64,000 nt of DNA from an uncultured Ruminococcus sp. (GTDB lineage Bacteria; Bacillota; Clostridia; Oscillospirales; CAG-382), in contig CAZNCN010000005.1 of the NCBI GenBank assembly GCA_964571635.1, forward strand, positions 15,788 through 79,787, given 5' to 3'. A program made the translations under genes and the position numbers. The notes below the pieces were generated by a model. The model was not told the origin of the DNA and searched no databases. It worked only from the letters and a program-made list of their open reading frames with translations. Below are positions 5,586-44,943 of the stretch, piece by piece; the stretch's first letter is position 1, and every line of letters begins with the position of its first letter.

Positions 5586-5659
5586 AAAACAGTTGATTTT
5601 GCGACGATAATGTGATAAGATAAATTGATTAATAATGAAAACGAAAGGACATATCAAAA

Positions 5660-29705: not shown

Positions 29706-29719
29706 TTATATGTTCCTCC

Positions 29720-31537
29720 TTATTTCTTGCTTATCGCGCCGAACTTGCAGACATCGACGCAGGTGCCGCACTTGACGCACTTGCTCTGGTCGATGACGAA
29801 CGGCTTGCGGATCTCGCCCGAGATAGCACCGACGGGGCACTTACGCGAGCATGCGCTGCAGCCCTTGCACTTTTCGGGGTCGATGACGTATTGTGCCAAA
29901 GCCTTGCAGCTGCCTGCAGGGCAACGCTTCTCTTTGATGTGAGCTTCATACTCGTCGCGGAAGAAGCGGAGCGTCGAAAGAACGGGGTTGGGAGCGGTCT
30001 GACCGAGCGCGCAGAGCGAGTTGGTCTTGATCATGTTGGCGAGCTCCTCGAGACGTTCAATATCGCCTTCTTCGCCCTTGCCCTCGGTGATACGGGTGAG
30101 TATCTCGAGCATTCTGCGAGTACCGACACGGCAGGGTGTGCACTTGCCGCAGGATTCGTCAACGATGAATTCGAGGAAGAACTTTGCGATGTCAACCATG
30201 CAGTTGTCCTCGTCCATGACGATCATGCCGCCCGAGCCCATCATGCAGCCCATTGCGACGAGAGTGTCATAGTCAACGGGGGTGTCGAGCAGGTGTGCGG
30301 GAATGCAGCCGCCCGAAGGGCCACCGGTCTGAACAGCCTTGAACTTTTTGCCGCCGGGAACGCCGCCGCCGATATCCTCGATGATAGTGCGCAGGGGAGT
30401 GCCCATGGGGATCTCAACGAGGCCTGTGTGAGTGATCTTGCCGCCGAGAGCAAAGATCTTGGTGCCCTTGGACTTTTCGGTGCCCATAGAAGCGAACCAG
30501 TCAGCACCCTTGAGTATAATCTGTGCAACGTTTGCATATGTCTCAACGTTGTTGATGATGGTGGGATGTCCAAACAGACCCTTGACTGCAGGGAACGGAG
30601 GACGGGGTCTGGGCTCGCCGCGGTTGCCCTCGATAGAGGTGAGCAGTGCGGTCTCTTCGCCGCAGACGAATGCACCTGCGCCAAGACGCAAGGAGATGTC
30701 AAAGTCAAAGCCTGTGCCGAATATGTTCTTGCCGAGCATACCGTATTCGTGTGCCTGATCGATAGCGATCTGCAGACGCTCGACTGCGATAGGATATTCT
30801 GCACGGACATAGATATAGCCCTGGTCAGCACCGATAGCATAGCCTGCGATAGCCATGGATTCGAGAACTGCGTGGGGGTCGCCCTCGAGGACCGATCTGT
30901 CCATGAATGCGCCGGGGTCACCCTCGTCGGCGTTGCAGACGACATATTTTTTGTCTGCGTTCGGGTTGTTCTCGAGAGTCTGGTCAGCAGCGAACTGCCA
31001 CTTGCGACCGGTGGGGAAGCCACCGCCGCCTCTGCCACGGAGACCCGAAGCGAGTATGGTGTCGATGACCTGCTGAGGGGTCATTTCGGTGAGAACCTTG
31101 CCGAGAGCGGCATAGCCGTCCATGGCGATATATTCTTCGATGTTTTCGGGGTTGATAACACCGCAGTTGCGCAGAGCAACGCGCTTCTGGCTCTTATAGA
31201 ACGAGGTGTCGCCCAGCGAAAGTGCCTTGTGGTCGACCTTGTCCTTGATGGTGTGGTCGCGATAAATGAGGCGGTCGACTATGCGGCCTTTGAGCAGATG
31301 CTCCTCGACGATCTCGGGAACGTCGTCAGCCGTAACAGACGAATAAAACACGCCTTCGGGATAGATGATCATAATAGGGCCGAGTGCGCAGAGACCGAAG
31401 CAGCCGGTGTGAACTATCTCGACTTCGTCCTGCAGACCCTTCTTCTCAAGCTCTTCCGCCAGCGCTTTGCGTATGGCGGCGCTGCCGGAGGAGGTGCAGC
31501 CGGTGCCTGCACAAACTAATACATGAGCACGAATCAT
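29720..31537 (-). CDS. hydB: NuoF-like flavoprotein subunit of the bifurcating hydrogenase (HydB/HndC)
   Basis: 605 aa. The FMN/NADH motifs are GRGGGGFPTG and CNADEGDPGAF. The SLBB segment contains ESCGKCTPCR, and the C-terminus has two 4Fe-4S motifs. Confidence 0.9.
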   Translation of the reverse strand: MIRAHVLVCAGTGCTSSGSAAIRKALAEELEKKGLQDEVEIVHTGCFGLCALGPIMIIYPEGVFYSSVTADDVPEIVEEHLLKGRIVDRLIYRDHTIKDKVDHKALSLGDTSFYKSQKRVALRNCGVINPENIEEYIAMDGYAALGKVLTEMTPQQVIDTILASGLRGRGGGGFPTGRKWQFAADQTLENNPNADKKYVVCNADEGDPGAFMDRSVLEGDPHAVLESMAIAGYAIGADQGYIYVRAEYPIAVERLQIAIDQAHEYGMLGKNIFGTGFDFDISLRLGAGAFVCGEETALLTSIEGNRGEPRPRPPFPAVKGLFGHPTIINNVETYANVAQIILKGADWFASMGTEKSKGTKIFALGGKITHTGLVEIPMGTPLRTIIEDIGGGVPGGKKFKAVQTGGPSGGCIPAHLLDTPVDYDTLVAMGCMMGSGGMIVMDEDNCMVDIAKFFLEFIVDESCGKCTPCRVGTRRMLEILTRITEGKGEEGDIERLEELANMIKTNSLCALGQTAPNPVLSTLRFFRDEYEAHIKEKRCPAGSCKALAQYVIDPEKCKGCSACSRKCPVGAISGEIRKPFVIDQSKCVKCGTCVDVCKFGAISKK

Positions 31538-31558
31538 TTTGCAATATCCTCCGTTAAA

Positions 31559-31930
31559 TTATATTTGTGTGCCATCGAGCATATACTCGGTGACGGGTTT
31601 GCCGCCCTTGATGTGTTCGGCGACGACTCTGCGTGCCTTCTCGGGGGTCATTTTTACATAAGTGATCTTCTCTTTGCCGGGCTCGATGACCTCGACTATA
31701 GGCTCCTGCTCGCACATACCTATGCAGCCGGACTGATAAACGATGGCTTTGGTATAGACCTCGTCCTCTGCGACTGCCTCGACAAGTGCATGCAAAACCT
31801 CTCTTGCGCCTGCGGCGATGCCACAGGTTGCCATGCCGACAACGATGCGTGTGCCGTTTTCACCTTCACGAAGAGAGATGTTTCTGCTCATCTTCTGCTT
31901 GATCGCGGCAAGTTCCTGCAATGTTTTCAT
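31559..31930 (-). CDS. Thioredoxin-like [2Fe-2S] ferredoxin (HndB-like)
   Basis: 123 aa with cysteines in MATCGIAAG and GCIGMCEQEP. It occupies the conserved position in hyd operons. Confidence 0.7.
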   Translation of the reverse strand: MKTLQELAAIKQKMSRNISLREGENGTRIVVGMATCGIAAGAREVLHALVEAVAEDEVYTKAIVYQSGCIGMCEQEPIVEVIEPGKEKITYVKMTPEKARRVVAEHIKGGKPVTEYMLDGTQI

Positions 31931-31968
31931 GCTTTGATTGATCCTTTCGGGTTATAGTTTATTTTTTA

Positions 31969-32520
31969 TTATTCGTAAAAAAGGGTGTACTGATTTGTGA
32001 GCTCGTTTTTTGCCCACTGCAAAACAGCGGGTATTGACAGTGGCAGTGAGCCTATCACCTGTCGTATCTCGACTGTGTCGATAAAGACCTGACTGTCGCC
32101 TGATCGATGGCAGAACCTGAATTCGGCATCGCCGATGCCTGACAGAATCGCTGACACCGTCGAAGCGACGTCGCCGAGCTTCGGGCAATATTCGCTCGCT
32201 TTGACAAAGCTCGCACATACGACCGTGCCGTGAAAGCACGGGTGCGCGGCAATGCAGCGACTGCGTATGTCAAGCCCTCCGCCTGTCATCTCTGCCGTGT
32301 TTTTAAGCAGCCAAAGCCCAAGTCCGCCGTCACCGCCGCGAGTTGTGTATGCTCTGTCGGTGACAAAAGGCAGGACTTGCGCCTCTATGCCGTGTCCGTC
32401 GTCGCAGACGGTCATTTTGATAACCGAATGTGTTTCGAAAATATCGGCGGCGATATGCCTGCTGTGCGCCATGATAGAATTATTGACCGCATCGAGCAGA
32501 TGCAACGAAATATCCTGCAT
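31969..32520 (-). CDS. Histidine-kinase-like ATPase domain protein (stand-alone HATPase_c)
   Basis: 183 aa. The N-box-like segment is HLLDAVNNS, with DDGHGI and GGLGLWLL. No HisKA or sensor domain is present. Confidence 0.65.
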   Translation of the reverse strand: MQDISLHLLDAVNNSIMAHSRHIAADIFETHSVIKMTVCDDGHGIEAQVLPFVTDRAYTTRGGDGGLGLWLLKNTAEMTGGGLDIRSRCIAAHPCFHGTVVCASFVKASEYCPKLGDVASTVSAILSGIGDAEFRFCHRSGDSQVFIDTVEIRQVIGSLPLSIPAVLQWAKNELTNQYTLFYE

Positions 32521-32523
32521 GGC

Positions 32524-32862
32524 TTATTCCGATCTTGAGAGCAATCTGCCTATCACAAGGCATGTCTCATACACAGGCATATCCGAAACGGCTATGTTCA
32601 AGCCTCTCGCCTCTGCTGACGAAAGCATAAGCTCGTCCGGCTCTGCGCCCTCGCAGAGAATGACACAGGGCATATTGACCAGAGCCGCTATCGCAGCGAC
32701 ATTGACGCAGGTCATAACCGTAGCAAAGCACTGTCCCTTCGACGCCTTGTCCATAACGTTGCTGAGCAGATCACCTGCATAGCAGCCACTGACGCCCGTG
32801 TCGGGAGAGGGCATGTTGACGACTTTGAATCCGGCCTCGCTGACAAGCTCTGAAACTGTCAT
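32524..32862 (-). CDS. DRTGG-domain protein
   Basis: 112 aa. The small CBS-associated DRTGG-like pattern (CYAGDLLSNVM...VNVAAIAALVNMPCVILCEG) is seen as a conserved partner in hydABC operons. Confidence 0.55.
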   Translation of the reverse strand: MTVSELVSEAGFKVVNMPSPDTGVSGCYAGDLLSNVMDKASKGQCFATVMTCVNVAAIAALVNMPCVILCEGAEPDELMLSSAEARGLNIAVSDMPVYETCLVIGRLLSRSE

Positions 32863-32877
32863 AAAAATGCCTCGGTA

Positions 32878-33354
32878 TCAGTATTTTGCAAGTATGCCTT
32901 CAACGGCGTCGGCAGTGACCTTGCCATAAACGTCGTCGTTGATCATCATGACGGGTGCGAGACCGCAGCAGCCAAGGCAGCGAGTGTCGCGGATCGAGAA
33001 TTTGCCGTCTGTGGTGGTCTGGCCTGCCTCAATGTTGAGAGTTGACTTGACCTTGTCGAGAACGGCGCCTGCGCCTTTGACATAGCAGGCAGTGCCCGTG
33101 CAGACGCTTATGACATAGTCGCCTGTCGGGGTGAGGGTGAATTGTGCGTAAAATGTTGCAACGCCATAGACATCGCTTGTGGGAATGCCGAGCGAGTCGG
33201 CGATGAGCTCCATCGTCTCAAACGAAAGATAGCCAAAGAGATTTTGAGCCTTTTGCATGATAGGCATGAGAGGGCCCTCGGTGTCCTTGTGCTCGGCGAT
33301 AAACGCCTTGAGTTCTTCGGTCTTAGCTGCGATTTGCTCTTTAGAAAGTGCCAT
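32878..33354 (-). CDS. hydC: NuoE-like [2Fe-2S] subunit of the bifurcating hydrogenase (HydC/HndA)
   Basis: The start is at MALSKEQ (AGGAGGA RBS). The cluster cysteines lie in CTGTACYVKG and CLGCCGLAPV. Confidence 0.85.
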   Translation of the reverse strand: MALSKEQIAAKTEELKAFIAEHKDTEGPLMPIMQKAQNLFGYLSFETMELIADSLGIPTSDVYGVATFYAQFTLTPTGDYVISVCTGTACYVKGAGAVLDKVKSTLNIEAGQTTTDGKFSIRDTRCLGCCGLAPVMMINDDVYGKVTADAVEGILAKY

Positions 33355-33425
33355 AACACTTGTCCTCCTGAGTTTATAAATAAATAATGTTACCTGAAAT
33401 ATCGATACACTTGAAACCAACTTAT

Positions 33426-33454
33426 AATATACCATAGAATTCTGCACTTTGCAA
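33426..33454 (-). promoter_or_regulatory. sigA-type promoter for the hydrogenase operon
   Basis: On the minus strand: TTGCAA, a 17-nt spacer, then TATATT. Confidence 0.4.
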
Positions 33455-33536
33455 GTTTTTTAGCATTATTTTTTTATGGTTTTTATTGCAATTTGGCTTG
33501 ATGCGTGATAAAATTCATTTGAAGGGAGTGTGCTTT

Positions 33537-35216
33537 ATGACAAAAAACAAAAATTGGTGGAAAAACAAGATAGCATATCAGATATATCCTCGCAGCTTTT
33601 GCGACTCCAACGGTGACGGCATAGGCGATATAAACGGCATTACATCCAAGCTTGATTATCTCAAAGACCTCGGCATAGACATCATCTGGATCTGCCCTGT
33701 ATACCGCTCGCCCATGGACGACGGTGGATATGACATTTCGGACTATTATGACGTTGACCCGATATTCGGCAAAAAGGATGACATAGATCTGCTTATTTCA
33801 GAGGCGAACAAGCGTGGTATAAAGATACTTATGGACCTCGTGCTCAACCATTGCTCTGACGAGCATCCATGGTTTAAAAAAGCACTTGCCGATCCCGACA
33901 GCGAAGAGGCGGGCTATTTCTGGTTCAGAGAGAGCCACGGCACTCCGCCCAACAACTGGCGCTCTATGTTCGGCGGCTCTGCATGGGAGAACGTCGGAGG
34001 CGACAGATGGTACCTGCATCTTTTTTCAAAAAAACAGCCCGATCTCAATTGGGAAAATCCCAAACTGCGCCAAAAGCTTTATGACATGATTAACTATTGG
34101 CTCGACAAGGGGCTTGGCGGTTTCCGCATAGATGCCATAACTCATATCAAAAAAGAGCCCACGCTCTCGTCATTGCCGCCTGATGATGATGACGGAATGG
34201 TCGGCTGCTTTGCTCCCACGCGCAATTATCCCGGCATCGGCGAACTTTTGACGGAACTGCGCAAAAACACGTTTGACAAGCACGAGTGCATGACTGTCGC
34301 CGAAGCGGCCGGTGTACCCTATGAGGAGCTCGGCGAATATATCGGTGAGGACGGATATTTTGATACGCTGTTTGATTTCACCTACAGCGAGCTTTATGCC
34401 TACGGTCATGGCTGGCATACCTGCAAGCGCCCGTGGGAATGGCCTATATCAAACCTTCGCGACAGGATGTTTGCATCGCAGCTCGCAACAGAAAAGGTCG
34501 GCTTTGGTGCAGTCTATTTTGAAAATCACGATTATCCCCGCGCGTGTGCGAAATTCCTGCCCGACCGCTATGTAAGTGTTGTTTCGCAGAAGATGCTGGG
34601 CACTTTGTTCTTCTTCCTCCGCGGTATACCCTTTATCTATCAGGGGCAGGAGCTCGGCATGACCAACACGCATTTTGATTCTATCGAGCAGGTCGACGAC
34701 ATATCGACCAGAAACCACTATAAGGTCGCGCTTTCCGACGGACTTTCGCCTCATGAGGCGATAAAAGCGGTCGAGAGGTACAGCCGTGACAATGCGAGAG
34801 TTCCGTTCCCTTGGGACAGCAGCGCAAACGGCGGATTTACCACAGGAACGCCGTGGATAAGAGTGCATCCCGATTATGCAACGGTTAACGCCGCCGACGA
34901 GCAAAAGGATCAAAACAGCGTTCTTAATTATTATAAGCACATGATAGCACTCCGCAAGGGCGAGGAATATAACCAAACCTTCACCTATGGAGATATTCAG
35001 CCGATTTTGCTCGAGCACGACGATATTATCGCGTATACAAGAAACGGCGACAGAAGTGCTGCCGTAATATGCTCGTTCTGCCCCGAACAAAAGACTGTAA
35101 AACTGCCGTTTGAGTGCGGTGAAATACTGCTTTCAAACTATGATGAACAATGCGTGCAGGGCTCTGAAATGACGCTCAGACCCTTCGAGTGCGCAGTCAT
35201 CGCTGTAAAGGACTGA
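33537..35216 (+). CDS. GH13 alpha-glucosidase / oligo-1,6-glucosidase
   Basis: The start is at MTKNKNWWKNKIAYQIYPRSF. The GH13 regions are DLVLNHCS, GFRIDAITH, EAAG and FENHDYPR. Confidence 0.85.
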   Translation: MTKNKNWWKNKIAYQIYPRSFCDSNGDGIGDINGITSKLDYLKDLGIDIIWICPVYRSPMDDGGYDISDYYDVDPIFGKKDDIDLLISEANKRGIKILMDLVLNHCSDEHPWFKKALADPDSEEAGYFWFRESHGTPPNNWRSMFGGSAWENVGGDRWYLHLFSKKQPDLNWENPKLRQKLYDMINYWLDKGLGGFRIDAITHIKKEPTLSSLPPDDDDGMVGCFAPTRNYPGIGELLTELRKNTFDKHECMTVAEAAGVPYEELGEYIGEDGYFDTLFDFTYSELYAYGHGWHTCKRPWEWPISNLRDRMFASQLATEKVGFGAVYFENHDYPRACAKFLPDRYVSVVSQKMLGTLFFFLRGIPFIYQGQELGMTNTHFDSIEQVDDISTRNHYKVALSDGLSPHEAIKAVERYSRDNARVPFPWDSSANGGFTTGTPWIRVHPDYATVNAADEQKDQNSVLNYYKHMIALRKGEEYNQTFTYGDIQPILLEHDDIIAYTRNGDRSAAVICSFCPEQKTVKLPFECGEILLSNYDEQCVQGSEMTLRPFECAVIAVKD

Positions 35217-35219
35217 AAT

Positions 35220-36245
35220 ATGCTCAAAATAGGAGTCGTCGGCATCGGACGCATGGGCTCGCACCATGTCGACATGTATCAAAAGCTCGTTTCAAACGGA
35301 GCCGACATCAAGCTTGCTGCGATATGCGATGTCGAGCAGTCGCGGCTTGACGGCACGACAACACATATTTTTAATATGGGAACAGAGCGTGAGCGCGATC
35401 TTTCTTCTATTAATAAATATACATCGATCGACGATATGCTTTTGCATGAAAAGCTCGATATCGTCGATGTCGTTGCACCTACATATTTGCATTGCGAGCT
35501 CTCGTGCAAGGCGCTCGAGGCAGGCTGCGACGTCATGTGCGAAAAGCCTATGGCACTTAATGCCGAGCAGTGCGACAGAATGCTTGAGACCGCAAAGAAG
35601 CACGGCAGACTTTTGATGATAGGTCAGTGCCTGCATTTCTGGCGCGAATATGTCTATCTGCAGGAGGTCATAAAGCAAAAGACCTTCGGTGAGGTCAAAG
35701 GCGGATTCTTTTGGCGCGGCGGATATGCTGACCACGAGAATAACCCCTCGTGGCACGACTGGATAATCACTGCCGACAAGGGTGGTGGAGGATTGTTCGA
35801 TCAGCATATTCACGACACCGATTTTGTCAGGCTTTGCTTTGGTGAGCCGCAGGGAGTGCTGACTACTGCACGCAAGTATTTCAAGGACAGTGCCGACGAC
35901 ATTGTTTCTACAAATTATATATATAGCGACAAGGTCATCAGTGCGACCGACGATATTGCATATGTCGGCTATCCGTTTTCTTACGGCTATCGTGTCGACA
36001 TGCAGGATGCGACTGTCGAGTTTGACAAGGGCATTGTAACTGTTTTCCCTCACCGCAAAGAGGCTTATAACCCCGACGTGACCGAATACGGCACGACCGA
36101 CGATGCATATTATAATGAGATAGAATACTTTATAGGCTGCGTAAAAACGCGCACGTATCCCGTCAGATGCAAGCCCGAGGATGCAAAGGCGTCGGTTCTG
36201 CTCGCCCTCAAAGAAGCAGAGTCGGCAAAAAAGAACAGATTTTGA
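35220..36245 (+). CDS. Gfo/Idh/MocA-family NAD(P)-dependent oxidoreductase
   Basis: 341 aa. The Rossmann N-terminus is KIGVVGIGRMG, and the EKPMA motif is present. Confidence 0.8.
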   Translation: MLKIGVVGIGRMGSHHVDMYQKLVSNGADIKLAAICDVEQSRLDGTTTHIFNMGTERERDLSSINKYTSIDDMLLHEKLDIVDVVAPTYLHCELSCKALEAGCDVMCEKPMALNAEQCDRMLETAKKHGRLLMIGQCLHFWREYVYLQEVIKQKTFGEVKGGFFWRGGYADHENNPSWHDWIITADKGGGGLFDQHIHDTDFVRLCFGEPQGVLTTARKYFKDSADDIVSTNYIYSDKVISATDDIAYVGYPFSYGYRVDMQDATVEFDKGIVTVFPHRKEAYNPDVTEYGTTDDAYYNEIEYFIGCVKTRTYPVRCKPEDAKASVLLALKEAESAKKNRF

Positions 36246-36521
36246 TCAAATCGGCGTTTGCGGCAAAAGCTGTGAACGCCGATTTTTTGCTTTTTGCAGC
36301 AGAATTCAAAATGAAATTGCATGTATTTGAAAATTTGACACCCCAATAATCTGCGGCACACCAAAAAAGCGTGCTAACAAAATATGCGCACAGTGCAAAG
36401 AATTGCATTTTTATTCGCTATTCTGCACTTTTTGTGCATAACTATACGAAATGTACGCATAAACGGCTTGACGTGGGCATTTTTTGTGCGATTTTTATAG
36501 TAAAAAAATTCGCTCTGCCTA

Positions 36522-36671: not shown

Positions 36672-36700
36672 TTGACAACGGCATATTTGTATGCTATAAT
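36672..36700 (+). promoter_or_regulatory. Proximal promoter P2 of the ABC importer operon
   Basis: TTGACA (36672-36677), a 17-nt spacer, then TATAAT (36695-36700). Confidence 0.5.
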
Positions 36701-36796: not shown

Positions 36797-39016
36797 ATGA
36801 AGAAAACAAAGATTTTCGCGCTTCTGTTGGCTCTTCTGATGGTTGCAACGATGGTTGCTGCTTGTGCTCCCACAAGCGACACTTCATCGGACGACACATC
36901 CAGCACAACAAGCGACGCACCTGCTGTTGACTTTGACGGCACCGAGGGTTATGTTAACCTCGACGGCAAAGTTTATGGCGAAGACTACACCTCGGTTTAC
37001 GAGAAATACGGCAAAGATATAACGATCGCTGACGTTCAGAAGAACGACGACGGCGACTGCTATATCGAAAAAGACGGCAAGCAGTACATCCTCGGCCTCG
37101 ACTTCCTTTCGATGGCTATGGTTTACAACTGCGGCAACGGCACTCTTGAAGAGCAGAACAGTGCTTACACCAAGTGGTGGCAGTACTACATCGAGAGATG
37201 GAACAAGCTGCTCCCCGAGATTCCCCTTTACTGCAACCAGTACTACGACGTTTACAGCACCAAGATCCAGCAGGTTAAAGAGAACCCCACCAACCCGCTT
37301 TGGAGCGCAGCTGCTGCTCTGATTGACTGGACTTCTGTTAAAGAAGACAACAGCATCATCCTCGGCAACTCCACTGAGCTTTCGGGCCTCTTCCGTTACT
37401 CGTCCTACGGTGTCTCCAGCCCCGGCGCTGCTGACCAGGATATCGAGAGCCTGACTGTCGAGCTCGGCACCGTCGTTGCTAACAAGAATGGCGCATATGT
37501 CTGGAACCCCACAGTTGTTAAGTCTCACACCGAGACTGTCAACGATGACAACTCCAAGACTTTCGAAATCGAGATCTATGACGACCTCAAGTTCAGCGAC
37601 GGCTCTGCTGTCACTGCAAAAGACTACCTCGTTGGCACTCTCGTCTTCTCTACCAAGGTTGCTACCGCTGCTATGGGCAGAGACAAGATGAGCGGCATGA
37701 CCGTTGTTGGCTACGATTCTTTCGCAGCATATGACGGCGGCGAAGAAGGCACCAAAGAATTCTCTGGTCTGAGAATGTTCGATGACTACAAGTTCTCTGT
37801 TACCATCTCTGCAGATTATCTTCCTTACTTCTATGACATCGCTTACGCTGCCTTCTCTGCTCAGTATGCAAAGATGTGGATTGGCGATGCTGAGATCAAA
37901 GACGACGGCAATGGCTGCTACATTACCGATGGCTTCTATGCAAAAGAGGGCGACGACTATACGATGGCTGCTTACCTCAATGCAACTTCTCAGAACACCG
38001 ATACTACCTATCCTTACTCCGGTCCCTACTATGTAGAGAGCTATGACGCAGCAAGCAAGATTGCTACTCTTAAGGCTAACACCTACTACAAGGGCAACTA
38101 CGAAGGCTCCAAGCCCTCGATCGACACTGTTATTTATAAGAAAGTTGTTACCGCTACTCAGCTGCAGGACCTCAAGTCTGGCGGTGTTGACATCCTGATG
38201 GGTGTTACCGGCGGCGACGCTACCAAAGAAGCTCTTACACTTATCGACGAAAGCAACGGCGCATTCGACGAAGTCGACTATGGCCGTGCCGGCTACGGCA
38301 AACTTGGTTTCCGTTGCGACTTCGGCGCATCGCAGTTCGCTGCAGTTCGCCAGGCAGTAGCTCTCTGCATGGACCGTCCCGACTTCGCTAAGAAGTTCAC
38401 CGGCGGTTACGGCGGAGTTGTCGAAGGACCTTACTACAGCACCTTCTGGGCTTATGCTGCAGTTAAGAACGACATCAAGCTTGACGCTTATGCAACTGAC
38501 AAAGACGCAGCTATCAAGACCCTCGAGGCTGACGGCTGGGTATATGACAAAGACGGCAACACCTACACTGAAGGTATCCGTTATAAGAAGATAGCTGCTT
38601 CCATCATCACCGAGGCTGACAAGACCTTCGCTTCTGCTGATGGCAAGTACAAGACCGAAAAGGTTGGCGACTTCTATTACATGCCTCTCGTAATCAACTG
38701 GTTCGGCACTACCGACAACGATTTCACCGATCTGCTTGTTGGTGCTTTCCAGGAGAACTCGAACCTCGCTGACTGCGGCGCTTATATCACCGCTAAGGCT
38801 GGCGACTTCTATCCCATGCTTGCTGAGCTCTATCAGCAGGATTACGGCTCTGGCGTCTACGGTGGCGTTCCTACCTATGCTGCATTCAACTTCGCAACCG
38901 GTTACAACTCTGCTGTTTATGACTATTCATACGGCAACACCGTTGACAACACCATGTATGATATGTACTCGCAGTACTACATCATAGATGAGGCTGACAT
39001 CATTTTCCTTAAGTAA
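36797..39016 (+). CDS. Oversized family-5 (Opp/Dpp-type) ABC substrate-binding lipoprotein
   Basis: 739 aa. The lipobox is MVAAC, followed by an S/T/D-rich linker. The family-5 core motif is FEIEIYDDLKFSDGSAVTAKDY. This is about 200 aa longer than typical OppA/DppA proteins. Confidence 0.75.
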   Translation: MKKTKIFALLLALLMVATMVAACAPTSDTSSDDTSSTTSDAPAVDFDGTEGYVNLDGKVYGEDYTSVYEKYGKDITIADVQKNDDGDCYIEKDGKQYILGLDFLSMAMVYNCGNGTLEEQNSAYTKWWQYYIERWNKLLPEIPLYCNQYYDVYSTKIQQVKENPTNPLWSAAAALIDWTSVKEDNSIILGNSTELSGLFRYSSYGVSSPGAADQDIESLTVELGTVVANKNGAYVWNPTVVKSHTETVNDDNSKTFEIEIYDDLKFSDGSAVTAKDYLVGTLVFSTKVATAAMGRDKMSGMTVVGYDSFAAYDGGEEGTKEFSGLRMFDDYKFSVTISADYLPYFYDIAYAAFSAQYAKMWIGDAEIKDDGNGCYITDGFYAKEGDDYTMAAYLNATSQNTDTTYPYSGPYYVESYDAASKIATLKANTYYKGNYEGSKPSIDTVIYKKVVTATQLQDLKSGGVDILMGVTGGDATKEALTLIDESNGAFDEVDYGRAGYGKLGFRCDFGASQFAAVRQAVALCMDRPDFAKKFTGGYGGVVEGPYYSTFWAYAAVKNDIKLDAYATDKDAAIKTLEADGWVYDKDGNTYTEGIRYKKIAASIITEADKTFASADGKYKTEKVGDFYYMPLVINWFGTTDNDFTDLLVGAFQENSNLADCGAYITAKAGDFYPMLAELYQQDYGSGVYGGVPTYAAFNFATGYNSAVYDYSYGNTVDNTMYDMYSQYYIIDEADIIFLK

Positions 39017-39056
39017 TTAATCAATTAGTTTAAGGAACTCGTTATAGAGTTTATTG

Positions 39057-39085
39057 GCAGGAAGGGGCTTCGTGCCCCTTCCTGC
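39057..39085 (+). terminator. Strong intra-operon hairpin after the binding-protein gene (partial terminator or mRNA stabiliser)
   Basis: A 12-bp perfect stem, gcaggaaggggc / gccccttcctgc, with a 5-nt loop. The T-tract is weak. Confidence 0.5.
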
Positions 39086-39234
39086 AACCTTTATGTAAGC
39101 ATTTTTTCGCACATTCCAATTGTAATAACCGCTTTTTACCCACTCGCATTTAAATTCGAAAACAATAAAGTGCAAGGCACTTTTGTTATATATCAGCGGC
39201 AAGTGCCGCAAATAAATTCAAAGGATGAATGATT

Positions 39235-40275
39235 ATGGGAAAGTATATTGTTAAGAGAACAGCATATATGCTGATAGTTCTCGTGATACTGTCTTTTCTT
39301 ATGTTCTGGCTTTATAATACGGCATGGGGCGACCGTGCGTATACCGAAGCCTTTGAAGAGGTCAAGGCCATTAAAAACCTGACCACTGAAGAAAGAGAAG
39401 CGTTGTTTCAAGAAAAGTATTTTTCATACCAGTGTCGCTATGGTACAGAGACAGGCAGCACTGTTGTGCAGTATTTGAGATGGCTTGGCGTATATCCTTA
39501 TTATGACGGCACTTTCAGTGGATTGCTGCAGGGTGACCTTGGTGAATCGACTTTTTATCACCTGTCTGTCGCCGAGGCTATTAAAGAGCCGATGCGCATC
39601 ACCATAATCGTAAATATATTCGCTACTATTCTTGCACTCGGCATAACCATTCCTCTCGGCATTCACTGTGCTGTCAAGCGTGGCAAGTTTGGCGATAAGT
39701 TTATGCAGATACTTACCATTATAGGTTATAGCTTGCCAACCTTCCTGATAGCGCTCTTGTTTATCTGGATATTCGTTGCGAAGCTCGGTTGGCTGCCGCC
39801 GTCTGGCATGGGCACTCCCGGCAACAAGTTTGTCGGTATGGAGAAGGTGCTCGATACACTTTATTACTTCGCACTGCCCATGATTGTTATGACATTCTGC
39901 TCTATGGGCGGCATGACCAGATACGTCCGTGCTTCTATGATCGAGGCACTCTCAATGGACTGCATCAGAACCGCTCGTGCAAAGGGCTTGCGCGAGAAGG
40001 TCGTTATTTATAGCCATGCATGGCATAACGCACTTATTCCTATCGTTACGCTCGTCGTTGGCTGGTTCCTCGGTATTTTCTCGGGATCGCTGGTCATTGA
40101 GCAGATATTCGCCATCAACGGTATGGGTCAGGTCATGATCACTGCTTTGAGAGCAAGTGACAACGACCTTATCATGTTCCTGCAGATGTTCTATGTCGTT
40201 ATAGCACTGCTGGGCAACCTCGTCATAGATATTGTCTATGGTCTGGTCGATCCTCGTGTCAGAGTTAACAAATAA
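39235..40275 (+). CDS. ABC permease, OppB/DppB-like
   Basis: About 346 aa. The EAA-loop region is YVRASMIEALSMDCIRTARAKGL. The ATG at 39235 is preferred over 39229 on RBS spacing. Confidence 0.85.
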   Translation: MGKYIVKRTAYMLIVLVILSFLMFWLYNTAWGDRAYTEAFEEVKAIKNLTTEEREALFQEKYFSYQCRYGTETGSTVVQYLRWLGVYPYYDGTFSGLLQGDLGESTFYHLSVAEAIKEPMRITIIVNIFATILALGITIPLGIHCAVKRGKFGDKFMQILTIIGYSLPTFLIALLFIWIFVAKLGWLPPSGMGTPGNKFVGMEKVLDTLYYFALPMIVMTFCSMGGMTRYVRASMIEALSMDCIRTARAKGLREKVVIYSHAWHNALIPIVTLVVGWFLGIFSGSLVIEQIFAINGMGQVMITALRASDNDLIMFLQMFYVVIALLGNLVIDIVYGLVDPRVRVNK

Positions 40276-40289
40276 GGAGGAGATTTAAA

Positions 40290-42350
40290 ATGAGCAAAGA
40301 TAAAAAGAATACCTCCTCCGCTCCCAAGAAGCGTGCAGGCTGGTTAAAGCGTCTGTTCTTCGGCGGCAGCAAGACTTATGCTGACGAGGTTCTTGCCACC
40401 GACAAATACGGTCAAAAGCAGGTTTCTGATGTTGAGGCTATTTTGAGCCCCGGCAAGCAGATAGTTAAGAACTTTCTTGAAAAGAAGTATGCTGTTGTAG
40501 CACTTATCATTGTTGTTTTGATGTTCGTTATGGCATATATCGGACCTCTGTTTATGCCTAAGTACTACGACTCATATTCAGAGACGCTGCAGCAGAATAT
40601 ATATCCCACCCTCGGTATGATGGATATGCCCAAGGAATTGCAGAGCGATATTAAGCAGATCTCGTCTTATGGTCCTTTCACCGTTGGACTTTCCAACGCA
40701 GGCAATGTCTATGTTTGGGGCTGTACCAAGATTGGTACCACCGGCGTCGACGTTGCCAACATACCCGAAGAGGTTAAAAACGCAAATATCGTTATGATCG
40801 CAGCCGGCATTGACCATATAATCGCTATTGATGATCAAGGCAAGATATATGGCTGGGGCGACAACAAGCTCGCCCAGTACGGTTTGTATGGAAAGCTGCC
40901 TGACTTCGTTCTGCCTATGTCCGAAGACCTCAGAGAGAACGGCGTTGACATCAATAATGTCAAAAAGCTCATCTGCGGCTATCAGGTCACAGCAATTCTC
41001 ATGAACGACGGCAGATTGCACATCTGGGGCAATAAGAACATGTATACCAACATGGAGTATTTTGCCACCATGAACGATGTTGATGAGGTTACCGGCGTCG
41101 CTCCCAACCCTGTTTTGCTTGATGATATAACCTTCACTTTGAGCTATGTCGTCGGCATCCGCCGTGCTCCCGAAGACGGCAGCACCTATGATCCTATCGT
41201 GCTCGGCCCTGCTAACGTCAAGACTTTCGTCGAGCCCAAGGCTTCGTATGACGATAAAGAGGGCACCAAGATCAATACTTGGCTCAAAGAGCGTGCACAC
41301 GATGGTCACAACGCAACCATCAAGGCCGCTTATTCGACTTGCTCTACTGTCACCTATCAGCTTTCTGATAACTCTATTCTTGTTGCGGGCAGCTTCCATG
41401 AGAGCAAGCGCTCGTTCGTCAAGATGCCCACCCTTGCAGAGGGCGAGTATTTTGTCAACATTTCGGCAGGCTCGCGCCATTATTCCGGCGTGACCAACCT
41501 CGGCAATGTTTATACATGGGGCGAGGATCTGCTCGACCAGTGCACTATGCCTTCAAAGGTTGAACCGACCGCAAAGGTTTATGCAACAGGCTTCCAGAAC
41601 TATTCTGTCAACGAAGACAACGAGCTCGTTCAGACCTGGGGCAACAGGGGCTATTTATTTGGCACCGATAAGAACGGTGCAAACATCCTGCACCGCATAA
41701 TCATCGGCTCAAGAATGACCATGACTATCGGCGGTGTTGCAGTTATCATTTCGACAATCATCGGCATAATCATCGGCTGCCTTGCAGGCTATTTCGGCGG
41801 CAAGGTCGACATAGTACTCATGCGTGTTACCGAGGTTTTTGCGGCAATCCCGTTCCTGCCGTTTGCCATGATACTTTCGTCAATGATGACCAAGATCCCT
41901 GACGATAATATTAGAATATTCCTGCTGATGTGCATACTCGGCTGCTTGTCGTGGACAGGCCTTGCAAGACTTGTTCGCGGTCAGGTGCTCGTCGCACGCG
42001 AAAATGAGTATGTCACCGCAGCAAAATCTATGGGTATCAAAGAATCGACCATCGCGTTCAAGCACATACTGCCTAACGTTATCTCGATCATCATCGTTAC
42101 CCTGACGCTTGACTTTGCAACCTGTATGCTGACCGAGTCATCGCTTTCGTACCTCGGATTCGGCGTTCAGCTGCCTGCACCGACGTGGGGCAATATGCTT
42201 AACGGCGTCATCAATATGACCATTATCAACAACTATTGGTGGCAGTGGCTGTTCACATCGCTGTTCCTTGCTACTACTACTATTTGCATCAACATTATCG
42301 GCGACGCGCTCAGGGACGTTATGGACCCCAAGTCGAGCGCTGAAAGGTGA
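40290..42350 (+). CDS. ABC permease, OppC/DppC-like, with an RCC1-like beta-propeller inserted in the first extracytoplasmic loop
   Basis: 686 aa with an AAGGAGG RBS. TM1 spans aa 67-88. Residues 120-455 carry six to seven repeats of the type GNVYVWG, GKIYGWGDNKLAQYG, GRLHIWGN, GNVYTWGEDLLDQC and LVQTWGN. The canonical LFGTD...ILHRIIIGSRMTMTIG core and EAA loop follow. Confidence 0.8.
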   Translation: MSKDKKNTSSAPKKRAGWLKRLFFGGSKTYADEVLATDKYGQKQVSDVEAILSPGKQIVKNFLEKKYAVVALIIVVLMFVMAYIGPLFMPKYYDSYSETLQQNIYPTLGMMDMPKELQSDIKQISSYGPFTVGLSNAGNVYVWGCTKIGTTGVDVANIPEEVKNANIVMIAAGIDHIIAIDDQGKIYGWGDNKLAQYGLYGKLPDFVLPMSEDLRENGVDINNVKKLICGYQVTAILMNDGRLHIWGNKNMYTNMEYFATMNDVDEVTGVAPNPVLLDDITFTLSYVVGIRRAPEDGSTYDPIVLGPANVKTFVEPKASYDDKEGTKINTWLKERAHDGHNATIKAAYSTCSTVTYQLSDNSILVAGSFHESKRSFVKMPTLAEGEYFVNISAGSRHYSGVTNLGNVYTWGEDLLDQCTMPSKVEPTAKVYATGFQNYSVNEDNELVQTWGNRGYLFGTDKNGANILHRIIIGSRMTMTIGGVAVIISTIIGIIIGCLAGYFGGKVDIVLMRVTEVFAAIPFLPFAMILSSMMTKIPDDNIRIFLLMCILGCLSWTGLARLVRGQVLVARENEYVTAAKSMGIKESTIAFKHILPNVISIIIVTLTLDFATCMLTESSLSYLGFGVQLPAPTWGNMLNGVINMTIINNYWWQWLFTSLFLATTTICINIIGDALRDVMDPKSSAER

Positions 42351-42365
42351 GGAGGTTAAATTATC

Positions 42366-43385
42366 ATGGCATTGCTTGAAGTTAATAACCTGCACACCTA
42401 TTTCAAGACCCGCAAGGGCATTGTTAAGGCAGTCAACGACGTGTCTTATACCCTTGAGCCCGGCAAGACCATCGGCATAGTCGGTGAGTCGGGCTCGGGT
42501 AAATCCGTCTCGGCAATGAGCATTCTGCGATTGCTCGATGATAACGGATATATTGCCGAGGGCAGCGTAAAGTTTGAGGGCAAAGAGCTCACCAAGCTTT
42601 CGATGGATGAGATGTATCACATCCGCGGTAACGCGATTTCGGTCATCTTCCAGGAGCCTATGACCTCGCTCAACCCTGTATTTTCTGTTGAAAAGCAGCT
42701 TTCTGAGCCGTTTATCGTTCACCAGGGCATGAAGAAGAAAGAGGCACGCGAGAGCGCCCTCAAGATGCTCTATGATGTCCAGATACCTAACCCCGAGGCA
42801 GTTATGAAGCAGTATCCGCATCAGCTTTCGGGCGGTATGAGACAGAGAGTCATGATCGCTATGGCGCTGGCTTGCAAGCCTCGCATTCTGATCGCCGACG
42901 AGCCCACCACCGCGCTTGACGTTACGATTCAGGCACAGATCCTGCGCCTTATGAACGATCTGCAGCGTGAGAACGGCACTTCGATCATATTCATCACCCA
43001 TGACCTGGGCGTTATAAACGAAATGGCTGACGACGTCGTCGTTATGTATTGCGGACAGGTCGTCGAGCAGGCTTCGGCGCGTATTATCTTCACCGACTGC
43101 AAGATGAGCCATCCTTATACCGAGGGCTTGATGAACAGCATTCCGCGTATCGACAATATCACGCACAAGCTTGAGCCTATCCCCGGCGTCGTGCCGCATC
43201 CGCTCGCACTGCCTAAGGGCTGCAAATTTGCACCGAGATGCAAATATGCAACGCAGAAGTGCCTCGATGGCGAGCCTCCGCTCGTGGAGGTCCTGCCCGG
43301 ACAGCGCGTCAGATGCTTCTATCCCGAAAAGGAGGTGAGGAACAGTGCCGAACACCAAAAAGCTCTTATCGATCACGAATCTTAA
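42366..43385 (+). CDS. ABC ATPase, OppD/DppD-like
   Basis: 339 aa. Walker A is GESGSGKS, the signature is LSGGMRQR and Walker B is LIADEPTTALD. The oligopeptide C-terminal domain contains GCKFAPRC. Confidence 0.9.
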   Translation: MALLEVNNLHTYFKTRKGIVKAVNDVSYTLEPGKTIGIVGESGSGKSVSAMSILRLLDDNGYIAEGSVKFEGKELTKLSMDEMYHIRGNAISVIFQEPMTSLNPVFSVEKQLSEPFIVHQGMKKKEARESALKMLYDVQIPNPEAVMKQYPHQLSGGMRQRVMIAMALACKPRILIADEPTTALDVTIQAQILRLMNDLQRENGTSIIFITHDLGVINEMADDVVVMYCGQVVEQASARIIFTDCKMSHPYTEGLMNSIPRIDNITHKLEPIPGVVPHPLALPKGCKFAPRCKYATQKCLDGEPPLVEVLPGQRVRCFYPEKEVRNSAEHQKALIDHES

Positions 43386-44943
43386 AAAATATTTCCCTAT
43401 TGCAAAGTCGAGCATCTTCCAAAAGCAGCAGTACTATGTCAAGGCTAACGAGGAGATCACTATCGACATTTATGAGGGCGAAACACTCGGCATAGTCGGC
43501 GAGTCGGGCTGCGGCAAGTCGACCCTCGGCAGAGTGCTGTTGCAGCTCTATGAACAGACTGCAGGCACGACGATGTATTATGGCGTTCCTCGTGCAGATC
43601 TCGCTCCTGATTATGTTCTGCATACTCTGAAACATGCAGATAAATACATCGCCAAAATGCACGCCGCTGAAGCACGTGCAATGGCTGCGGCAGAGAAGGC
43701 TGATTTGCTCGGCGAAGATGCAACATTCTTTGATCTGCAGGACAAGAACCTCGCTGAGGCTGAATATCAGACCGCAGTTGCTCACACCGCAAAGATTCTG
43801 GGCGGCTTTACCGTCAAGGACACCAAGGCAGGTGCTGCATTGCTCTACCAGCAGGCACAGCTCGAGGATGACGCTGCTGCACTCGCAGAGCGCATTAAAG
43901 ATATTGACCTCCAGCTTGATGACTCGGTCGAGGACGATGAGCGCAAGAAGCTCTCTGAGTCCAAAAAGCAAAAGCTTATCGCAAAGCGCGATTCATATAT
44001 CGCACAGCGCGAATCAAAGCTTGCTCAGATCGCCGACCTCGCCAATAAGATCGACGAGCGCAAGGCAGCATATAAGTATGACGAAGAGTTTATGCATTAC
44101 GAGTCTATGCTTGACGACGGCATCGACCTCGCACGACTCAAATATTCTGAGATGCGCCATCTGCGCAAGGATCTGCAGATAGTATTCCAGGATCCGTATT
44201 CATCGCTCAACCCCCGTATGACCGTTGGTCAGATAATCGAGGAGGGTCTTGTTACCCATAAGTTCTATCGCCACGGCTCTAACAAAATGAGAGAATATAT
44301 CCTCGAGGTCATGCGTAAGTGCGGCCTGCAGGACTATATGCTTTACAGATATCCGCACCAGTTCTCGGGCGGTCAAAGACAGCGTATCTCTATCGCGCGT
44401 GCACTTGCGGTTCACCCCAAATTTGTCGTCTGCGACGAATGTGTTTCGGCACTTGACGTTTCGATTCAGTCGCAGATCATCAACCTTTTGCAGGATCTTA
44501 AGGACAAAGAGAACCTCACATATATGTTCATCTCGCATGACCTTTCTGTCGTCAGATATATTTCTGACAGGATTTGCGTTATGTACCTCGGCAATGTCGT
44601 CGAGCTTGCAGATGCATCAAAGATATTTGAGGATCCCCGCCATCCTTATACCGTCGCACTGCTTTCGTCGATACCCACAACCGACCCCGAAAGCCTCTCG
44701 AAAGAGCGCATTTTGCTCGAGGGCAACATCCCCAGCCCCATCAAGCCGCCGTCAGGATGCAAATTCCACACTCGTTGCTATATGGCATGCGAGCAGTGCA
44801 AGCGCGTTCCGCCCGAGCTTGCCGAGATCGAGCCGGGTCATTTCGTAGCCTGCCACTTCCCGCAGCGCAAGCTCGACAAAAACGGCAATTATCTCTTTGA
44901 GATGCCGTCAACAGAGCGCAGATCCTCGAGAGAAGCACAATAA
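43345..44943 (+). CDS. ABC ATPase, OppF/DppF-like, with a ~175-aa helical insertion between Walker A and the Q-loop
   Basis: 532 aa with a GTG start after AAGGAGGTGAGG. Walker A is GESGCGKST at aa 52-60, but the Q-loop IVFQDP does not appear until aa 279-284. The intervening sequence is rich in A, E, K and D. LSGGQRQR-like FSGGQRQR, CDECVSALD and a GCKFHTRC tail are present. Confidence 0.85.
   Translation: MPNTKKLLSITNLKKYFPIAKSSIFQKQQYYVKANEEITIDIYEGETLGIVGESGCGKSTLGRVLLQLYEQTAGTTMYYGVPRADLAPDYVLHTLKHADKYIAKMHAAEARAMAAAEKADLLGEDATFFDLQDKNLAEAEYQTAVAHTAKILGGFTVKDTKAGAALLYQQAQLEDDAAALAERIKDIDLQLDDSVEDDERKKLSESKKQKLIAKRDSYIAQRESKLAQIADLANKIDERKAAYKYDEEFMHYESMLDDGIDLARLKYSEMRHLRKDLQIVFQDPYSSLNPRMTVGQIIEEGLVTHKFYRHGSNKMREYILEVMRKCGLQDYMLYRYPHQFSGGQRQRISIARALAVHPKFVVCDECVSALDVSIQSQIINLLQDLKDKENLTYMFISHDLSVVRYISDRICVMYLGNVVELADASKIFEDPRHPYTVALLSSIPTTDPESLSKERILLEGNIPSPIKPPSGCKFHTRCYMACEQCKRVPPELAEIEPGHFVACHFPQRKLDKNGNYLFEMPSTERRSSREAQ

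Follow-up and report, generated by a model that had tools for sequence, protein, structure and literature searches.

A predicted seven-bladed RCC1-like propeller in the first extracytoplasmic loop of an OppC-type permease from gut Clostridia

The transmembrane subunits of type I ATP-binding cassette (ABC) importers normally expose only short loops. In Gram-positive organisms, GlnPQ and OpuA are examples of ABC importers with substrate-binding domains fused to the transmembrane domain (TMD). A fusion of the substrate-binding protein (SBP) MalE with the TMD of MalF is found in Bdellovibrio, and the immunoglobulin-like P2 domain of MalF, which binds MalE's N-lobe over the whole transport cycle with a dissociation constant of 7-22 uM, has been termed 'unique' as a large SBP-binding ectodomain (PMC6906923). 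Here we describe a different arrangement, found in a 64,000-nucleotide (nt) stretch of DNA (the window) from an uncultured Ruminococcus sp. (GenBank assembly GCA_964571635.1, contig CAZNCN010000005.1, positions 15,788 to 79,787). Positions 36797-44943 of the window (+ strand) form a five-gene cassette, SBP-OppB-OppC-OppD-OppF, and the third gene encodes an OppC-type permease with a predicted seven-bladed RCC1-like beta-propeller between its first two transmembrane (TM) helices.

The closest described relatives of this permease are the canonical OppC and DppC subunits of Escherichia coli OppBCDF (8z21) and DppABCDF (8z1y) and of Mycobacterium tuberculosis OppABCD (8j5q) and DppABCD (8wd9). Their cores are 33-38% identical to that of the window protein and superpose on it, and they share with it the OppC_N and BPD_transp_1 domains, six TM helices and an EAA-type coupling motif. 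The operons also correspond, with an OppB, two ATPases carrying an oligo_HPY domain and a four-cysteine motif, and a cluster C SBP. In the canonical proteins, however, the TM1-TM2 (P1) loop is a few tens of residues long, whereas in the window OppC it holds an insert of about 350 amino acids (aa). The window cassette further departs from canonical Opp/Dpp systems in its SBP of about 740 aa, which is circularly permuted, and in an insertion of about 180 aa in OppF.

MalF P2 of the E. coli MalFGK2-E complex resembles the insert in being a large folded extracytoplasmic domain in a TMD loop of a type I importer. P2 comprises about 185 aa between TM3 and TM4 of the eight-TM MalF, whereas the predicted propeller comprises about 330 aa between TM1 and TM2 of a six-TM OppC. 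The two belong to different transporter families, share no homology and are proposed as functional analogues only. With another fold, another loop and another importer family, the window design has been present in databases but unremarked. Importers with fused SBPs (GlnPQ, OpuA and the Bdellovibrio MalE-MalF protein) likewise carry an extracytoplasmic domain covalently on a type I translocator, but there the fused domain is the SBP itself; the window has a separate SBP gene and a propeller without SBP fold. Type VII or Bce-type permeases (BceB, VraG, MacB, FtsX) also place a large ectodomain between TM helices for ligand or partner recognition. Their TMDs and ectodomain folds are unrelated, and they serve mechanotransmission or export rather than SBP-dependent import.

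The propeller itself has its relatives among the RCC1-like domains (RLDs) of BLIP-II, a secreted protein of Streptomyces, and of UVR8, RCC1, HERC2 and RPGR. They have in common the seven-bladed fold and the G-x-x-H and WG-x-N-x-x-GQ signature, with Foldseek E values of about 1e-12 to RCC1-like domains, and BLIP-II, like the window propeller as predicted, is extracytoplasmic in a bacterium. These RCC1-like domains are soluble, whereas the window propeller would be embedded in a polytopic membrane protein, and its blades 4-5 are degenerate. The guanine nucleotide exchange, UV-sensing or beta-lactamase-inhibitor activities of these relatives are not to be expected of it. An extracytoplasmic role would be added for bacterial RCC1-like domains, the functions of which are mostly unknown.

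The OppC protein and its insert

By domain content and operon context, the third gene encodes an OppC/DppC-family permease, the C-type transmembrane subunit of an Opp/Dpp-family type I ABC importer, and it is the equivalog of no curated model. Its parts are listed below by window position.

40290..42350, + strand: OppC-type permease with RCC1-like propeller, 686 aa, a single uninterrupted open reading frame
40290..40445, + strand: basic N-tail, predicted cytoplasmic, aa 1-52, low model confidence
40446..40553, + strand: OppC_N segment with TM1 (Pfam, hydropathy, model helix aa 66-88)
40554..40649, + strand: conserved linker, predicted extracytoplasmic, aa 89-120 (majority-residue frequency 0.75)
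40650..41645, + strand: predicted seven-bladed RCC1-like beta-propeller, aa 121-452 (Pfam, PDB sequence matches, AlphaFold2, Foldseek)
41106..41441, + strand: blades 4-5, least conserved, rich in insertions and deletions (indels), lowest model confidence, without WG motif, co-varying most strongly with the SBP N-module
41655..41669, + strand: LFGTD motif, aa 456-460, where canonical OppC sequence resumes, five residues past the last WG of blade 7
41685..42347, + strand: permease core TM2-TM6 (BPD_transp_1, match to 8z21_B) with the EAA-type coupling motif TAAKSMG-x9-H-ILP, read from the sequence

Four Pfam profiles exceed their cutoffs along the protein: OppC_N (aa 53-101, E 2e-9, 37.5 bits against a cutoff of 23.9), RCC1_2 (four stretches, E 1e-21, 76.5 bits against 22), RCC1 (30.0 bits against 21.7) and BPD_transp_1 (aa 492-681, E 1e-29, 103.8 bits against 26.4). 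Matches of this strength lie well outside what chance would give. The whole-domain RLD profile PF25390 (WD40_RLD) scores 100.1 bits, under its cutoff of 150, because the middle blades are too divergent. Among the NCBIfam equivalogs for OppC, Opp4C comes closest, with 288.8 bits where its cutoff asks for 350, and the remaining OppC, DppC and NikC-type models lie further under theirs, so that substrate specificity cannot be assigned by equivalog. In a sequence search of the PDB, aa 453-682 match E. coli OppC (8z21_B, E 2e-48), and aa ~110-250 match UVR8, RCC1, HERC2, RPGR and BLIP-II (E 3e-18 to 2e-5). Residue 80 of E. coli OppC aligns to residue 453 of the window protein, and residue 52 of M. 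tuberculosis OppC to residue 444. Since the OppC_N match ends at aa 101 and canonical sequence restarts with GYLFGTD (aa 454-460), about 350 residues have been inserted in the P1 loop. The start of the linker, PKYYDSYSETLQQNIYPT, lies within the reach of the OppC_N match and is a leftover of the canonical loop.

The fold was predicted with AlphaFold2 from a 47-sequence family alignment; the model has a mean predicted local distance difference test (pLDDT) score of 76 and a predicted template modelling (pTM) score of 0.70. Seven triplets of A, B and C strands are predicted, flanked by the TM1 helix (66-88) and a five-helix permease core. The pLDDT is 84-97 in blades 1-3 and 6-7 and lower in blades 4-5; five of the seven blades keep the WG signature, blades 4 and 5 being the degenerate ones. 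Each blade is given here with its bounds, its strand triplet and the majority-residue frequency over 63 cassettes (TM core: 0.87).

Blade 1: aa 121-162, strands 121-144, 0.82
Blade 2: aa 163-219, strands 167-190, 0.67
Blade 3: aa 220-272, strands 224-248, 0.61
Blade 4: aa 273-339, strands 277-291, 0.46
Blade 5: aa 340-384, strands 344-367, 0.52
Blade 6: aa 385-425, strands 388-412, 0.66
Blade 7: aa 426-452, strands 429-451, 0.65

Searched with Foldseek, the model matches BLIP-II with a target-normalised template modelling score (TMt) of 0.70-0.73 and UVR8 with an E value of 8e-13. The probability is 1.00 for BLIP-II, UVR8, RPGR and RCC1, HERC2 is also matched, and OppC is found with a TMt of 0.61. 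By Pfam thresholds and predicted fold, the insert is a member of the RCC1-like repeat family. We regard the structural description, an OppC with a predicted seven-bladed propeller in its P1 loop, as close to certain.

A sequence-only reading of the window had proposed an RCC1-like insert in an OppC-type permease at 40554-41684, which corresponds to aa 89-465. The five blade motifs that it quoted lie where it had placed them (aa 138-149, 178-198, 236-250, 401-418 and 442-455). LFGTD (aa 456-460) and the SRMTMTIG that opens the core (aa 474-481) are present too. Its TM1, at aa 67-88, coincides with a hydropathy peak at 69-87 and with the model helix. The family assignment, for which Pfam searches had been proposed, is borne out by the four profile matches, and the blade count that it left to structure prediction comes to seven, with RCC1-like structures as the Foldseek matches.

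That reading had also taken the loop to lie outside the cell, and two lines of evidence agree with it. The N-tail holds 12 Lys and Arg against 6 Asp and Glu, whereas the loop is net acidic, with 31 against 45, as the positive-inside rule would have it. In cryo-electron microscopy (cryo-EM) structures of homologues, DppB and DppC have their TM1-TM2 regions in the periplasm, and both are capped by the SBP (PMC12136057, PMC10954201). The charge bias and these solved homologues together assign the propeller loop to the outside of the cell. The SBP encoded in the same cassette has a lipobox, which points to a monoderm cell and would place the propeller on the outer face of the cytoplasmic membrane.

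Distribution and constraint

An identical 686-aa protein is encoded on 15 independent contigs, and nine further variants (at least 90% identity) share its length of 686 aa. Searching with the insert only gave 562 protein matches, of which the best 120 are all of about 630-665 aa with OppC_N, RCC1 and BPD_transp_1. Where databases name them, the names are only 'ABC transporter permease subunit' or 'peptide/nickel transport system permease protein'. Among species-representative genomes 462 candidate relatives were found, and the best 80 all align over aa 1-686; some of the other 382 could be plain OppC, because one of the search patterns lay in the core. These 80 come from Oscillospiraceae, Lachnospiraceae, 'Ruminococcus', Acutalibacter, Faecousia, Christensenellales and others, sampled in human, rodent, rabbit, ruminant and chicken guts. 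The cultured Acetatifactor muris DSM 23669 is among them, which makes experiments feasible.

Homologues with the same insertion point, for which the sequence-only reading had proposed a search, are thus found in at least 80 species genomes. Its remark that such a domain is unusual for ABC importers stands in comparison with characterised importers but does not hold for gut Clostridia, where proteins of this design are common and conserved. The literature search yielded no account of a propeller domain, RCC1-like or other, in an Opp/Dpp permease; most subscription journals lay outside its coverage, so that absence is not proof.

The architecture also survives divergence. About eight divergent representatives, with 38-45% identity in the insert, were picked from the representative search and keep it, and the one divergent cassette examined (locus L082) retains the full gene set, a long SBP and a split OppF. 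A complete SBP-OppB-OppC-OppD-OppF cassette is present in every related locus with enough flanking sequence. The closest propeller relatives outside permeases are of another kind. The exhaustive representative search is dominated by giant multi-RCC1 proteins (P0121-P0128 and many others) of 2,000-7,000 aa with 15-40 RCC1-type repeat matches each, and it seems that very large metagenomic proteins are commonly built from RCC1 repeats.

Selection on the insert was estimated by the method of Nei and Gojobori on 18 independent close pairs. The ratio of nonsynonymous to synonymous substitution rates (dN/dS) is 0.09 in blades 1-2, 0.10 in blades 3-5, 0.10 in blades 6-7 and 0.03 in the core. It lies at 0.06-0.10 over all blades, and the degenerate blades 4-5 are likewise under purifying selection. 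The low values in every blade group argue that the whole propeller is constrained, and they rule out both a decaying insert and pervasive diversifying selection. The design is thus kept under purifying selection in at least 80, and probably hundreds, of gut Oscillospirales and Lachnospirales species.

These data also bear on the possibility that the architecture is an assembly artefact or a decaying, non-functional insertion, to which we give next to no credence. The 15 identical contigs, the nine 686-aa variants and the same junctions in at least 80 species speak against it, as do the intact reading frame and the strong purifying selection, and nothing was found in its favour. A mis-join, which the earlier reading had named as a way in which it could fail, is ruled out by the 15 contigs with an identical protein, the architecture shared by related loci and the common insertion point.

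The substrate-binding protein and the role of the propeller

The genes upstream of oppC in the cassette encode the SBP and the second permease subunit.

36797..39016, + strand: SBP, family-5 (cluster C, OppA-like) lipoprotein, 739 aa, circularly permuted by alignment (Pfam SBP_bac_5, E 7e-28)
36950..37336, + strand: SBP N-module, SBP aa 52-180, with homology to the canonical OppA C-terminus in its second half
39229..40275, + strand: OppB-type permease, 348 aa (Pfam BPD_transp_1, E 7e-38)

The SBP begins with a signal peptide and lipobox (...MVAAC, aa 1-23, read from the sequence). A segment that matches the C-terminus of OppA (...LPEIPLY...IDW) follows directly after the lipoprotein linker, and a short connector joins it to the canonical N-terminus (...IDWT-SVKEDNS-IILGNSTEL...). 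In a three-piece alignment to OppA (9p48_A), SBP aa 122-176 correspond to residues 505-556 of 562, and aa 210-618 to residues 23-368. The SBP is, as this alignment shows, circularly permuted, and the permutation shifts the lipid tether to a different point on the SBP fold. The permuted order is found in 66 related loci. The canonical order occurs only in L003, in L022, where the same module stands at the C-terminus of the SBP (L022 4494-6746), and in the divergent L082 (SBP at 3781-5898). With the canonical order confined to these three, it appears to be ancestral, and the propeller older than the permutation.

Locus L022, from an uncultured 'Ruminococcus' metagenome-assembled genome, is informative in another way. 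Its DNA matches the window at about 92% identity up to the region of the SBP start codon and at 93-99% over the last ~100 nt of oppC and what follows them, yet at only 33-90% across SBP-OppB-OppC. At the protein level SBP, OppB and OppC are 66-71% identical, whereas the flanks and oppD/oppF are 92-99% identical. The swapped block spans ~36865-42245 of the window and ~4560-9940 of L022; one breakpoint falls at the start of the SBP, the other close to the end of oppC, and L022 and L003 form their own deep sub-clade for SBP, OppB and OppC. This pattern suggests that the SBP-OppB-OppC half has been exchanged by recombination between close relatives on a constant ATPase half.

The propeller could instead be mainly a variable surface under diversifying selection, for instance one that phages use as receptor or one that antibodies target or that acts as a decoy. 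The indel-rich, poorly conserved blades 4-5 fit that picture, as does the difference of 30-35% in SBP-OppB-OppC between genomes with 92-99% identical flanks. We consider it highly improbable that this is chiefly what the propeller is. The dN/dS of blades 3-5 (0.08-0.10) shows no excess over the other blades, and the swapped block also takes in OppB and the OppC core, both embedded in the membrane.

A mirror-tree (pairwise-distance) analysis of the 63 cassettes separates the five proteins into two evolutionary modules, {SBP, OppB, OppC} and {OppD, OppF}, with correlations of 0.6-0.97 within and 0.2-0.55 between them. Propeller distances track those of the SBP N-module best (rho 0.75), ahead of the propeller's own OppC core (0.69). 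When OppB, the OppC core, OppD, OppF and the rest of the SBP are controlled for, the propeller still correlates with the N-module (partial Mantel r 0.34, p 0.001), whereas the OppC core (r 0.06) and OppB (r 0.07) do not do so significantly. The correlation persists within the main 55-member clade alone (r 0.26, p 0.001) and is strongest for blades 3-5 (r 0.25-0.42). Two fast-evolving cytoplasmic controls show no significant correlation with the N-module, namely the OppF insert (r 0.08) and the OppC N-tail (r 0.00). These results are suggestive of co-adaptation between propeller and SBP. Among the roles that the sequence-only reading had put forward (docking of a second substrate or of the binding protein, anchoring to the cell wall or a partner protein), binding-protein docking is the one that this co-variation indirectly supports, and the others gain nothing from the data.

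The same module structure weighs on a sensory reading, in which the propeller would be a regulatory ectodomain, gating transport or sending a signal into the cell, and the OppF insertion its cytoplasmic counterpart (a transceptor). Propeller and OppF insertion do co-occur, both in the window and its related loci and in the divergent L082, and other ABC permeases, BceB and VraG among them, sense ligands with large ectodomains. The two nevertheless fall into different evolutionary modules (rho 0.25), which weakens the case; no two-component or regulator gene was found as a conserved neighbour, and BceB-type permeases have a different fold. We take this reading to be quite unlikely.

Every locus with upstream flank retains an SBP gene, which rules out a propeller that takes the place of the SBP. 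Another possibility is that it captures substrate independently, binding long peptides, glycopeptides, host or dietary protein fragments or a substrate-bearing polymer, and concentrates them or passes them to the SBP. The propeller is, as predicted, extracytoplasmic, it is conserved, and purifying selection acts on it; the loop faces of propellers can serve as ligand-binding sites, and related RCC1 repeats are abundant in giant, presumably surface-exposed bacterial proteins. On the other hand, we know of no RCC1-like domain that acts as a receptor for peptides or small ligands, the invariant propeller residues are mostly structural G, W, D and H positions, the SBP is always retained, and the co-variation with the SBP module would be left unexplained. 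Independent capture is therefore judged improbable.

The favoured reading, which is held tentatively and as somewhat short of probable, is that the propeller serves as an accessory docking or tethering platform for its cognate lipoprotein SBP. In the DppABCDF complex the SBP caps DppB and DppC, and the TM1-TM2 region of the B subunit forms a scoop that enters the SBP cleft (PMC12136057, PMC10954201). The propeller enlarges the P1 loop of the C subunit and must therefore, on the analogy of these structures, flank the SBP docking site; the OppB P1 loop of the cassette is the counterpart of the DppB scoop motif (PMC12136057). The short P1 loop has been replaced by the predicted seven-bladed propeller, held near the membrane by its conserved N-terminal linker and a C-terminal tether of about five residues. 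The propeller would sit beside the SBP landing surface on OppB and OppC and touch the SBP lobe that holds the transposed N-module. There it would hold on to the SBP, in the right orientation, at the translocator, as MalF P2 does for MalE, and peptide extraction would still fall to the OppB P1 scoop loop.

The substrate of such an importer is most likely oligopeptides, to judge from the Opp-family profile matches, from OppA proteins as the best solved relatives of the SBP and from an M3 oligopeptidase gene upstream of the cassette in 11 of 54 loci.

Several points weigh against this docking role and its peptide substrate. In M. tuberculosis DppABCD the SBP contacts mainly DppB and the short DppC P1 loop plays little part (PMC10954201), so that docking by the propeller would be a newly gained function. 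Tests of the Mantel type are liberal when the sequences are related, partial correlations of 0.26-0.34 are modest, and residual shared history or rate effects may contribute to them. The peptide assignment rests on family resemblance, with all NCBIfam equivalogs under cutoff, and neither a regulatory RNA nor a conserved metabolic neighbour that fixes the substrate was found. Finally, RCC1-like propellers are generic protein-interaction scaffolds, and the partner could be another molecule.

Such a partner might be another component of the envelope, for instance peptidoglycan, secondary wall polymers, an extracellular protease or a membrane protein, to which the propeller would anchor the transporter and so localise uptake. 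RCC1-like propellers are interaction platforms, as BLIP-II is in binding beta-lactamases, and one metagenomic protein, P0150 (L081 175-1929), joins in 584 aa the OppC_N/TM1 segment and the first part of the propeller (54% identical) to three SLH domains, without permease core. If real, it would indicate a wall-associated role. It comes, however, from a single 2.4-kb contig at ~2x coverage, was seen in two samples and is probably chimeric, and because of that short contig and low coverage it is discounted as evidence for wall anchoring. No conserved candidate partner gene lies beside the cassette, and Pfam finds no wall-binding motif in the insert. Anchoring of this kind is considered unlikely.

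If the docking role is correct, accessory SBP-capture domains have evolved more than once, and abundant gut commensals take up peptides through an importer architecture absent from all solved structures. The permuted SBP and the exchanged receptor half offer natural experiments on the co-adaptation of SBP and translocator. A bolder extension of docking, which we rate as doubtful, is that propeller, lipoprotein SBP and OppB scoop loop form a permanently assembled, co-evolving extracellular receptor module. Blades 3-5 would clamp the N-module, the permutation would have arisen to put the lipid tether on the clamped module, and SBP-OppB-OppC would be swapped as a specificity cassette on a constant ATPase half. 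If true, type I importers of Gram-positive gut bacteria would follow an organisational principle that had not been recognised before.

The cassette as a transcription unit and its neighbours

The remaining features of the cassette are the following.

36672..36700, + strand: likely operon promoter, TTGACA-17-TATAAT with extended -10 TG (12 of 12 sigma-70 consensus positions, pattern match only)
42366..43385, + strand: OppD ATPase, 339 aa, with oligo_HPY C-terminal domain and four-cysteine motif (profile matches; Cys spacing from the sequence)
43345..44943, + strand: OppF ATPase, 532 aa, its ABC_tran domain split by an insertion of ~180 aa (two ABC_tran stretches, weak SMC_N)
43570-44109, + strand: OppF insertion, OppF aa 76-255, between the Walker A region and the Q-loop

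The upstream gene ends in a strong terminator at 36248-36285, and the promoter follows just 3' of it, so the cassette appears to be transcribed as a unit of its own. Within the 212-nt gap between the SBP gene and oppB, positions 39167-39183 form a perfect 7-bp palindromic hairpin (pattern match only). It could be a partial terminator or messenger RNA stabiliser that yields an excess of SBP transcript, as is common in Opp operons. No riboswitch or T-box leader was found in the window or in four related loci. OppB scores 211.9 bits against NCBIfam Opp4B, under the cutoff, and no paralogues of the propeller or of the SBP were found within the window.

The OppF insertion is apparently helical and charged, with a mean identity of just 35% across related cassettes, and it is found in every related cassette examined, including the divergent L082. 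The NCBIfam models for oversized Mollicutes OppD and OppF proteins (MMSYN1_0167/0168) align across it. Both ATPases carry a four-cysteine motif, C-x5-C-x6-C-x17-C, near the C-terminus (~43190-43330 in OppD and ~44750-44880 in OppF). The spacing in OppD equals that of the [4Fe-4S] sites of E. coli DppD, and in OppF the last gap is x17 against x16 in DppF (PMC12136057). The motifs suggest iron-sulfur clusters in OppD and OppF here too.

Few genes accompany the cassette. An M3 peptidase of ~560-590 aa (oligoendopeptidase-F-like, PF01432, E 4e-23) lies directly upstream of the SBP gene on the same strand in L026 and ten other loci of the 54 with upstream flank, and is absent from the window. Besides it, no conserved cassette neighbour that names a substrate or partner was found in these loci. 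Neighbouring RNase R and SmpB genes were considered as informative context and dismissed as housekeeping coincidences. Nearby in the window, 27960-33447 (- strand) encodes a [FeFe]-hydrogenase large subunit, a NuoF-like flavoprotein and a thioredoxin-like 2Fe-2S protein, resembling an electron-bifurcating HydABC-type cluster, and 33486-36245 (+ strand) encodes a GH13 alpha-amylase-family enzyme and a Gfo/Idh/MocA oxidoreductase. The hydrogenase, GH13 and Gfo/Idh/MocA genes are conserved beside the cassette only in its closest relatives.

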